A stretch of 64,000 nucleotides of DNA from Chrysomallon squamiferum (GCA_012295275.1 CM022668.1:10540001-10604000), one strand, 5' to 3'. Positions 8,254 through 57,800 are shown, numbered from the stretch's first letter. The notes: generated from the letters alone by a model not told the origin. Numbers and translations: made by a program.

Positions 8254-11200
8254 ATGGCGTCGTTTCGGATGTATTTATTTATTCATGGAATATGTCTGAA
8301 TTTCCTTCTGTGCGTAATTACAGGTAGGATATGATGATGATGATGATGATGATGATGATGTAAACAGCAACTACAAAAACAGTGACAACTACGAATATGC
8401 ACACATATTCACAAACACACATACTCGCAGTCGTATACCATACATAAACACACACACACGTACAGAGAGAGAGAGAGAGAGAGAGAGAGAGAGAGAGAGA
8501 GAGAGAGAGAGAGAGAGAGAGAGAGAGAGAGAGAGAGAGAGAGAGAGAGAGAGAGAGAGAGAGAGAGAGAGAGAGAGAGAGAGAGAGAGAGAGAGAGTGT
8601 GTGTGTGTATAACTAATGGTTTAAATATTTCAATTTCAGTTTCAGCTGGCTGTACAGCGGGTCAGTATGGTTTAGACTGTAAGTACGTCTGTCACTGTGA
8701 TTCAGGATGTGATGACGTCACAGGATGTTCTAACACAAACTGCAATAAAGGATGGTCTGGACCAAAGTGTACAATTGGTAGTTCAATGTTTTAATTCAAA
8801 ACAAAGTTTATTTAATATTTGATACTAAATAAAATGGAAAAGTATCCGTTTGCAATAATAATAATAATAATAATAATAATAATAATAATAATAATAATAA
8901 TAATAATAATAATAACACTACTGATTGTAGCTATGAATGTGAAAATAATGATGATAATGACAATAGTTGTAGTAGCAGTAATAGTACAATAGGTAGTGTT
9001 TGTCTTTTGTCTCTATGTAAGTGTATAATATTTTACGTGTAGATACAAACAGACATTCACGAGCACATGAACGTAACTCCAGCTTTTAGAACTAGTTTAT
9101 TATCTTGTGTACTTTTTTATATTTGTATTTATTATGTCTCTTTTTGATGATTTTTAGTGCATTTAACGTTATTATTATTATTAATATTAGTATTAGTATT
9201 AACATCATCGTCATCACCATTGTCATTTACGTTGTCATTATCATTATTACTGTTCTTATTCTTCTTTTGCATTTCGTTATTATTTTTTTTATGACTTTAT
9301 GATTTATATTTTTTATTTATTATTTTTTTATTTAAAATGGATGATGATAGTTGGATGGATGGATGGATGGAAGGAGGGATGGAGGGATAAACATATGAAC
9401 GGATCGACTAATATAATTAATGTATTTTTTCATGTTTTCCTTAAACATAATTGAAATTAGCTGAAAAGAAAAAAGAAACATAACATATTATCATTTATGT
9501 ACCGATTTAATATTTTTATTTATAAATTTTATTTCAGAAAACGTAGCTTTAAACAAAACTACATATCAGACAGGAGACTCCAAAAATTCCTATCTAGCTG
9601 TTGATGGGAGTTACACACAAGGATACTATGCAGCTTTGTGTATACTTACACCTGTACGTGATCCATTCTCGTGGTGGGAAGTGGATCTGGGAAAACAATA
9701 TTACATACATCAACTTGACATCCACTTCAGAACAGATTGTAATTAAATTGAAAATGTAATTAAAGAGGAAAAGGAATTAAATCTGAAAAAAATCTATAAT
9801 TTTTAAATCAAGTTAAAAAATCCTAAAATCATTATTCTGTATTTTTAAACAATGTAGGAGAAAAAAGTATTAACGATTGAAAAACAAAAAATACAAAATT
9901 TTTAAAAAATATTATATTTTTCTTACAAATAAAAATATTTGAAAAAATAGAGAGAGAGATTTAAAGAGAGAGAGAGAGAGAGAGAGAGAGAGAGAGAGAG
10001 AGAGAGAGAAGAGAAATAAGAGAGAGAGAATAATTTGTGTTTTTCATTTACTTACAGACAAGTGTCATAGAAATGATGTTCACATCTACAGTTCTTTGAA
10101 GATGAACCAGACTAACACCAGTCACCTGTGTGGTGTAACAACAATAAACAGCCCGGATGTAACACGTGTAACATGTAACAACATGGCTCAGTACATCACA
10201 CTGTATCAGGGAACAAACAATGATGTTTATGATACTGAATATCATAACGCTGGAACAGCGATGGATTTCTGTGAAGTTGAAGTATTTGGTGAGTCAAATA
10301 ATAAACTAATAATTAAACTGAATAATAAATTTAATAAATCTTTCTAGCTGTTGTGATGTTTTACTTAGCAATAGTTATATTCTTATCAATTTTAGAAAAA
10401 TCTTTATTCAATAATATTTATAAATACATTTCCCTTTCTTCTTTACTTACGTTGGAAAAATATAATATACATATATATATAATGCTAAATAATGTGTGTG
10501 TTTGTGTGTGTCTTGTGTGTATGTATGTATTTTTATATTTTATTACAGAAAATGAAAACAAATACAATAATAAAAATTAATCACTTTCATCTCTCATCTT
10601 ATTATGATAAATCAAATATTATGTTTTACTTTTAGTATTGTTGTTGTTGGTTATTTTAATTATTATTATTATTATTATCATCATCATCATCATCATCATT
10701 CATCGTCAATTTTTAATTTATTATTATTACTATTATCATCACAATCATTATCGTCATCACTGTTATTATTGTTGTTATTATTATTATTGTTACTGGTTTA
10801 TTATTTGTTGTTTATTATTATTATTATTCTTATTATTATTATTATTATTATTATTATTATTTTATTATTATTATTATTATTATTATTATTATTATTATTA
10901 TTATTATTATTGTTGTTGTTGTTGTTATTTCAGTTTGTGACACTGGTACGTTTGGAGAGAAGTGTACAAAGTTTTGTCACTGTAAAGAAAACACGTGTCA
11001 CTACGTCACTGGAGAATGTACTGGAGGATGTCAACAAAACTGGACTGGAACACACTGCGACGGTAAAAACAACAACAACAACAACAGTAACATGAACATA
11101 CAGAAACACACAACAACATCAACGACAACAACAACTGAACACAAGAACAATAACAACAACAATAATATTAATAATAATAATAATAATAATAATAATAATA

Positions 11201-57000: not shown

Positions 57001-57800
57001 AGAGCCATGATCAAAATGAAAAAGAAAAATAAGTGAAGGATAAAATTGTAAATTAATTATTCTCATAATTTAGTAAAATACAATTTTAGTTCTTCAAAGT
57101 TTCTAATTGTTTTTAAGAATATACCTATGAACTACTTATTTAGCATAACTATATTTCTTTAACGTAAATATATGTTTCATGCGAAATAAAAAATAAATTA
57201 TAAAAAATAAATTTCAGTCTTGAAGATAAATACGACATACAATCAGGTAACTGAAATCCGTCCAAGCAGTCGTTAGTGCAGCGACCAAAGAACATGTCAG
57301 AAGTTGAATCACGGAAACATTTACGAGAATCACACGAAGTGATACAGTTGTACCCATATGTACCACTGCACACTGAAAATAAAATACATGTTTTAAAATT
57401 GTACCTTTAGGTGCCATAGCTGACTGGAAACAGTAACACCATGAATATGTTACAGTTGTATTGTGTGCATCATTCTATGCTGAAAATATAATAAATTGTC
57501 TATCTATTCAGAAATATATATATAACTGTCTCTCTTTATCCATAATATAATAAATATATTTTCTACAAAACTGTGTTTTCCCATCAACATCCTTTTTTAG
57601 TCCTGCTGATTTTCTATATGTCACCATCTCTATATATGTCAATCAAAAATTTAAAATTCAAATACAAATGTACTGTACAGTCATGTGACTGATAACCTCG
57701 ATCACATCCACGCTCACACGTTCCTGTCACGTGATCACATAAGCTGCTTTTCAGAGAGTGACGTGCACTGCAGACAAATTTACAATTCTGTCTATGCCTA
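54054..57800 (-). pseudogene. Gene D: inverted, deleted receptor paralog
   Basis: Truncated exon 7 (~57670-57800, donor lost), exon 8 57234-57372 (2 nt short), exon 9 56790-56936, exon 10 56147-56290, exons 11-12 deleted (junction ~55605), TM 54710-54821 with in-frame TAA (AGC GAA TAA), tail 54054-54345 (YVN changed to CVN). Exons 1-6 are absent. Confidence 0.85.

Follow-up and report, generated by a model that had tools for sequence, protein, structure and literature searches.

A candidate paired-receptor system in a vent snail: a lectin-EGF ectodomain probably shared between ITAM-pattern tails and a receptor phosphatase

Two receptor architectures clustered in a fashion comparable to that studied here have already been published from Biomphalaria. 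The LG5R region of Biomphalaria glabrata, which shows haplotype instability and is linked to schistosome resistance, encodes clustered single-pass "scavenger class F-like" receptors with galactose-binding/fucolectin and EGF signatures whose cytoplasmic part is a short tail in subgroup 1B and a pair of PTP domains in subgroup 1C (PMC13712769). SudRes1 of Biomphalaria sudanica holds GBD-MEGF-TM-PTP genes amid other MEGF genes, where copy number varies from genome to genome and EGF domains have been lost (PMC12297450), and each of these regions lies under a mapping peak for schistosome resistance. ITAM has no occurrence in either main text; the LG5R main text contains no cross-type comparison of ectodomains and no paired reading, and that on SudRes1 no paired model. 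A term search of a vent-snail genome paper returned no occurrence of EGF, lectin or tyrosine phosphatase in the text searched (PMC7736800). Our literature search, which covered main texts and largely open-access papers, found no account of ITAMs, ectodomain exchange or a paired reading for such clusters.

The vertebrate paired receptors KIR, Ly49, Siglec and SIRP are likewise clustered, with similar ectodomains maintained by exchange and two cytoplasmic types. Their folds differ from those described here; in the present cluster it is the receptor tail that bears the ITAM pattern, and the candidate partner has built-in phosphatase domains and no ITIM. Draper, MEGF10 and SCARF, to judge from the database names of homologs, share an EGF-pair stalk and a tyrosine tail with our receptors but carry an EMI domain at the N-terminus. 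An N-terminal EMI domain and an NPxY motif are the marks of Draper/CED-1; in the intact gene of our cluster, an F-type-lectin-like domain takes the place of EMI and no NPxY was seen on inspection of the tail. Vertebrate RPTP-alpha and RPTP-epsilon, the phosphatases of solved structure closest to the D1 domain found here, have short ectodomains and a less degenerate D2. Among invertebrates, the Hydractinia Alr family is also a cluster with ITAM-bearing tails, for which a balance of activation and inhibition has been proposed, but it has Ig folds, ITIM partners and a genetic mapping to allorecognition (10.1101/2022.03.04.482883); nothing in our analysis points to allorecognition. In the oyster receptor CgIgR, also molluscan, Syk reportedly binds a YxxL-x8-YxxL motif at the C-terminus, but this receptor has an Ig ectodomain and is described without a phosphatase partner (PMC6994640).

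We analysed a stretch of 64,000 nt from Chrysomallon squamiferum (the window), consisting of microsatellite-rich DNA with 30% G+C, in which we found four tail-type copies (A, B, C and D), a fragment (Z) and one RPTP (Table 1). An earlier note on this DNA had counted at least five lectin-EGF-TM-tail genes; tail exons are indeed present in four copies, but only A (one of the four) has an open frame, and of Z only exons 1 and 2 fall inside the window, short of any exon that would show its tail type. Copy B has no exons 2–9, its exon 10 is frameshifted by a 10-nt deletion, and its exon 11 carries a 2-nt insertion. Copy D, the sister of B, adjoins intron 10 of the RPTP; it is missing exons 1–6, 11 and 12, and its exon 8 lacks an open donor. 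In copy C, two compensating deletions (2 nt and 1 nt) in exon 7 (30818-30958, +) shift eight codons, with loss of cysteines.

Table 1 Positions of the receptor genes, their parts and neighbouring elements in the window.
Feature	Position	Strand	Remarks
Gene A, intact	8254..16093	+	14 exons, all with AG/GT ends; 729-aa open frame
Gene A exon 1, signal peptide	8254-8323	+	
Gene A exon 2, EGF pair	Between exons 1 and 3	+	
Gene A exons 3 and 4, F-type-lectin-like domain	9538-9738 + 10058-10288	+	
Gene A exons 5-12, eight EGF-pair exons	10934-14710	+	Pfam EGF matches weak
Identical A/RPTP tract	14023..14186	+	164 nt = 6 + 144 + 14 (exon 11 with flanks)
Gene A exon 13, TM	14983-15094	+	
Gene A exon 14, 97-aa tail	15802-16093	+	
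Gene A ITAM pattern, YETL-x9-YEKI	16030..16080 (approximate)	+	Near C-terminus; YVN motif upstream
Copy B, broken	19176..22962	+	Retains exon 1, which runs straight into exons 10-12, and the TM and tail exons
Copy C, broken as assembled	27164..35694	+	Exons 3 and 8 lack an open donor; exon 12 missing; ITAM-pattern tail
Copy D, broken	54054..57804	-	Retains a piece of exon 7, exons 8-10, the tail and a TM exon interrupted by a stop
Copy Z	29..6409	-	Divergent exon 1 (6409-6335, frameshift in T run) and exon 2 (~178-33); runs off window
RPTP overall	53185-40914	-	Two EGF exons, TM exon, 16 cytoplasmic exons
RPTP EGF exons 11 and 12	53185-53042 + 52586-52443	-	
RPTP TM exon and juxtamembrane exon	51863-51749 + 50906-50470	-	
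RPTP D1 domain, eight exons	45560..50119	-	KNR, WPD, HCSAGIGRTG and Q-loop motifs intact
RPTP degenerate D2 domain	40914..45086	-	Catalytic motif absent; ends VYANM; matches G. aegis ortholog P0011
D 3' UTR/RPTP intron 10 junction	53990..54030	-	Real rearrangement or misjoin
Degenerate Gypsy-type LTR retrotransposon	59478-63749	-	PNMA-like gag with zinc knuckle, protease, reverse transcriptase, RNase H, integrase; separate frames

By architecture alone, gene A has the Biomphalaria 1B layout, with a signal peptide, a galactose-binding/fucolectin domain, EGF repeats, a single TM segment and a short tail. Its lectin region matched PF22633 at E 1.5e-5, under the curated cut-off, and exon 3 matched fucolectin structures (FBP32, E 2.9e-6; E 6.5e-10 with homolog P0002 as query). 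The second lectin exon had nine homologs among 11 candidates, all from the vent snail Gigantopelta aegis (57–77% identity). We take the fucose-binding triad of F-type lectins to be His...RxD...R; where FBP32 reads CTHT, gene A reads CILT, which places Leu at the fucose-site His with RxD retained and leaves the triad incomplete. This position varies among peltospirid paralogs, with gene A, P0003, P0005 and P0008 on one side and the G. aegis proteins P0009 and P0052, which retain His, on the other. Such variation among paralogs of both types suggests that their ligands may have diversified.

The sharing of EGF exons between gene A and the RPTP is closest in exon 11. The reading of these exons in the earlier note was borne out: exon 11 of gene A (14029-14172, +) is the reverse complement of that of the RPTP without a difference in 144 nt, the two versions of exon 12 disagree at 10 positions in 144 (seven of them within the last 23 nt), and the intron between them is similar. 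In this intron 315 of 379 aligned columns are identical (~16% diverged), and BLAST blocks spanning 274 columns contain 44 substitutions. Inspection of the translations bore out the further claim that the TM and cytoplasmic exons are unrelated. Homology between the two genes stops ~90 nt upstream of exon 11, and none was found between their introns 12. From the other copies, RPTP exon 11 differs at four (C) and seven (B) positions. At the intron rate, the probability of no synonymous change in 27.7 sites is 0.007, so that the identity exceeds chance in a test that was post hoc and concerned a single exon preselected by the earlier note. Between A and C, pS was 0.073 in exons and 0.12 in introns, a pattern consistent with exons being somewhat homogenised across the family, dead tail copies included.

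We regard comparison with G. aegis as a stronger argument for exchange than the synonymous-site probability. The cytoplasmic part of the RPTP is orthologous to that of G. aegis P0011 (59% identity over 363 aa, with the same degenerate D2 and C-terminus), and tails orthologous to that of gene A occur in P0003, P0005 and P0007; both types are therefore older than the split between the two species. The RPTP exon 11 product is nevertheless identical to that of gene A (47/47 residues), compared with 33/47 for P0007, a tail-type protein of G. aegis, and 29/47 for P0011, and given the age of both types, EGF exons have evidently crossed between them since the split from Gigantopelta aegis. The note's proposal of a shared ectodomain was likewise upheld. 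Exchange between the types is further borne out by ectodomains that group by species and cytoplasmic regions that group by type, with sequence variants common to both types. A tree of the 47-aa EGF units, with 4 of 17 branches starred, was too poorly resolved to point to a donor type or a direction of exchange, and either gene conversion or unequal crossover would fit these data. The ectodomain of P0011 is 54–61% identical to those of six sampled paralogs, which indicates that homogenisation is episodic.

The RPTP has the features of a classical receptor PTP, with a TM segment and a D1 domain bearing the KNR, WPD, HCSAGxGRTG and Q-loop motifs. Five of the six D1 exons scanned matched PF00102, and the 16 cytoplasmic exons form a single 661-aa open frame. 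Within the window the gene begins at exon 11, and no signal, lectin or any other of exons 1–10 of its own was found there; on its 5' side follow, in this order, copy D, a duplicate of the region upstream of B, and a degenerate retrotransposon. The ectodomain of P0011 has eight EGF pairs, ordered as in gene A, together with the final part of a lectin domain, so that a lectin-EGF ectodomain is probably normal for this RPTP. A PTP domain is present in 21 of 35 long homologs, of which 11 also have a lectin. Set beside the 1C layout, in which such an ectodomain is combined with two PTP domains, the RPTP of the window shows two EGF exons, D1 and the degenerate D2.

Read contigs bear both on the integrity of this gene and on the possibility that the exon 11 identity and the D–RPTP arrangement arose in assembly or polishing. 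Of 11 listed runs, nine contain the stretch, two of them as RNA, and contigs from four runs were taken over 49420-57790. An RNA contig of 193 nt (X8) runs from an A/C-type end of exon 10 through exon 11, with four differences in 142 nt, skips exon 12 and continues with 15 letters identical to the first positions of the RPTP TM exon, a join short of our bridging standard of 31 letters. A second RNA contig properly bridges the TM and juxtamembrane exons, with ~68–71 nt between them. The earlier note would have been refuted by RPTP EGF exons not spliced to the PTP exons; our contigs support the EGF-to-TM step at this lower standard and the TM-to-juxtamembrane step in full, and contain no juxtamembrane-to-D1 join, that region lying outside RNA coverage. 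No convincing exon or exon pair for the ~68–71 nt was found within 51748-50907 (-); a 41-nt mini-exon after the TM exon was rejected, as the RNA requires ~71 nt. A further RNA contig of 652 nt (X9) contains exons 9–12 and a loose end that we read as an A-type TM exon. Exon 11 of the RPTP-linked X8 and of the tail-linked X9, which come from different samples (S7 and S8), have two variants in common, one known in C and one in B. We considered a single locus splicing D exons 7–10 to either tail or phosphatase, and rejected it on two grounds: D is a broken copy without its 5' exons, and exon 10 in the RPTP transcript has an end of A/C type rather than D type.

DNA contigs were far deeper over the PTP and juxtamembrane exons than over the D intron (829–979 versus 32–59 in X1; 78–122 versus 7–14 in X2), and this ~10–20x difference in depth gives a hint, though no more, of several near-identical RPTP copies. 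One X1 contig joins exon 10 directly to RPTP intron 10 (joint 54007-56111, with 28 letters on the short side). These deep contigs and this join indicate that the window's RPTP is either a rearranged haplotype or a misjoin and that intact copies likely exist; the D–RPTP junction itself may well be a misjoin. Both observations, together with the restriction of the identity to exon 11 and its splice flanks, are what an assembly artefact would predict. Such an origin for the shared exon is nonetheless very improbable, given that an independent RNA contig carries its own version of exon 11 into the RPTP TM exon and that sharing across types recurs among RefSeq proteins of other species; the RNA contigs thus argue against the pure chimera that the earlier note had named as a possible refutation.

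The tail of gene A fits the ITAM consensus Yxx[I/L]x6-9Yxx[L/I] given by Huene et al. for Hydractinia (10.1101/2022.03.04.482883) and is similar to the oyster CgIgR motif. A YxxL-x9-YxxI pattern ends all four window tails and all five G. aegis tails examined, with the spacer fixed at nine residues and diverged in sequence, and occurs in 0.3% of shuffled tails. This conservation agrees with the description of these genes as ITAM-tailed receptors in the earlier note, at the level of predicted proteins. In the wider family, the strict pattern was found in 20 of 65 non-PTP TM homologs (0.42 expected), although these homologs are related and the query was itself ITAM-tailed; 39 of the 65 have no ITAM pattern. 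None of 56 long PTP homologs had it in the juxtamembrane part, and 15 of the 56 contain an ITIM-like string. We also rejected a derivation of the ITAM tails from RPTP juxtamembrane regions by truncation, since nine pairs showed 26–33% identity over short stretches. Tails from different lineages show little likeness to one another or to RPTP juxtamembrane regions, and the RPTP juxtamembrane exon, used as a query, matched none of 310 candidates.

The pattern extends beyond this snail. We gathered 188 homologous proteins and built a tree from 61 lectin-plus-EGF regions (42 PTP-type and 19 ITAM-type), leaving out P0122, which was PTP by the motif filter without a Pfam PTP match, and scoring P0009 as PTP-type by its juxtamembrane region alone. 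The types interleave, and monophyly of the ITAM type was rejected (p-AU 6e-57); label changes numbered nine, whereas 200 shuffles averaged 16.2 and never gave fewer than 10, so that the types are evidently also partly clumped. Ectodomains of opposite type were 80% identical in Haliotis rubra (315/394), 76% in H. rufescens (287/378, on the same contig with accessions 20 apart) and 67–71% in G. aegis, compared with 38–52% in six pairs within a type; the cross-type pairs are best picks from the tree and BLAST, and three of nine were weak (57%, 51% and none). Judged from these annotated proteins, cross-type pairing is recurrent in abalones. Similar ectodomains, clustered genes, differing cytoplasmic types and exchange between ectodomains, by which paired receptors are recognised, are all found here, and the value of the window, a damaged example, lies in this family-wide pattern.

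Exchange need not imply partnership: tandem paralogs may convert each other as a by-product, leaving independent receptors whose shared exons have no selected role. Three of the four tail copies and the RPTP copy in the window are broken, homogenisation among tail copies takes in dead ones, and the exons common in the window belong to the membrane-proximal stalk rather than the lectin, all as this account would have it. Yet in full-length annotated proteins of Haliotis and G. aegis the likeness across types extends to the lectin domain, and both types have been kept in peltospirids, abalones and Biomphalaria, so we consider the by-product account unlikely, if still a serious contender. Our preferred reading is that one lectin-EGF ectodomain in a fast-evolving gastropod cluster has been exchanged between an ITAM tail and a phosphatase, making the two receptors candidate activating and damping partners for one class of ligand; we hold this tentatively, as quite possible though just short of probable. 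The lectin sharing it invokes is taken from the Gigantopelta and Haliotis proteins, the window's RPTP being without lectin exons.

Under the paired reading, we infer the following steps. A ligand would cluster the tail receptor, a Src-family kinase would phosphorylate both ITAM tyrosines, and Syk or Shark would dock, prompting haemocytes to phagocytose or kill. The phosphatase receptor, joining the same contact through its matching ectodomain, would strip these phosphates and set the threshold, and damping would proceed without an ITIM and a recruited SHP. In line with the earlier suggestion that the inhibitory partner carries a phosphatase in place of an ITIM, the catalytic D1 motifs are intact and the ITIM pattern [ILVS]xYxx[ILV] was absent, on inspection, from the juxtamembrane and C-terminal translations of the RPTP. 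Since every ectodomain exon is phase 1-1, recombination between similar exons could freely swap or homogenise ectodomain units, and birth and death of genes would account for the damage to B, C and D and for an RPTP without its 5' exons.

The sign of the phosphatase effect could, however, go either way. The phosphatase might, like CD45 or RPTP-alpha/epsilon, prime a Src-family kinase for ITAM phosphorylation, so that the two receptors would form a co-activating AND gate. The RPTP ends in VYANM, and a C-terminal YxN, which may be the counterpart of RPTP-alpha Tyr789, is found in 37 of 56 long PTP homologs. With P0011 as query, the closest solved phosphatases were RPTP-epsilon (E 1.5e-112) and RPTP-alpha, the latter described as an activator of Fyn/Src (PMC2171675, PMC5505127), although LAR and RPTP-sigma score almost equally, so that assignment to this subclass is tentative. 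A general primer of Src would presumably need no array of ligand-specific, fast-evolving ectodomains, and we think co-activation distinctly unlikely.

More broadly, though this strikes us as rather doubtful, molluscs may have paired immune receptors in which, in several lineages, lectin-EGF ectodomains are repeatedly copied between ITAM-tailed activators and inhibitors with a built-in phosphatase, with LG5R and SudRes1 as instances; every new ligand specificity would then come in an on and an off version, and resistance in Biomphalaria would reflect the balance of 1B-type and 1C-type signals. This bears on the two Biomphalaria resistance peaks, and the LG5R main text (PMC13712769) calls the short tails featureless. 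A conserved ITAM pattern and repeated exchange with a phosphatase receptor provide a testable model of molluscan activation thresholds without ITIM receptors, and would amount to a third way of building a paired receptor.

Several minor features of the window also merit mention. A 1.6-kb upstream region is common to B (17267-18861, +) and D (59437-57873, -) at 90.6% identity; the deletions in these two copies are complementary, and deletion ends lie at microsatellites. Downstream of C, a coding-like stretch (36092-36990, -) has long open frames, the scanned part being without a Pfam match. Copy Z lies head to head with gene A, and its first intron contains a tandem duplication (214-2600 and 2476-6620); a vestige of exon 1, derived from its 3' end, lies near 2300.
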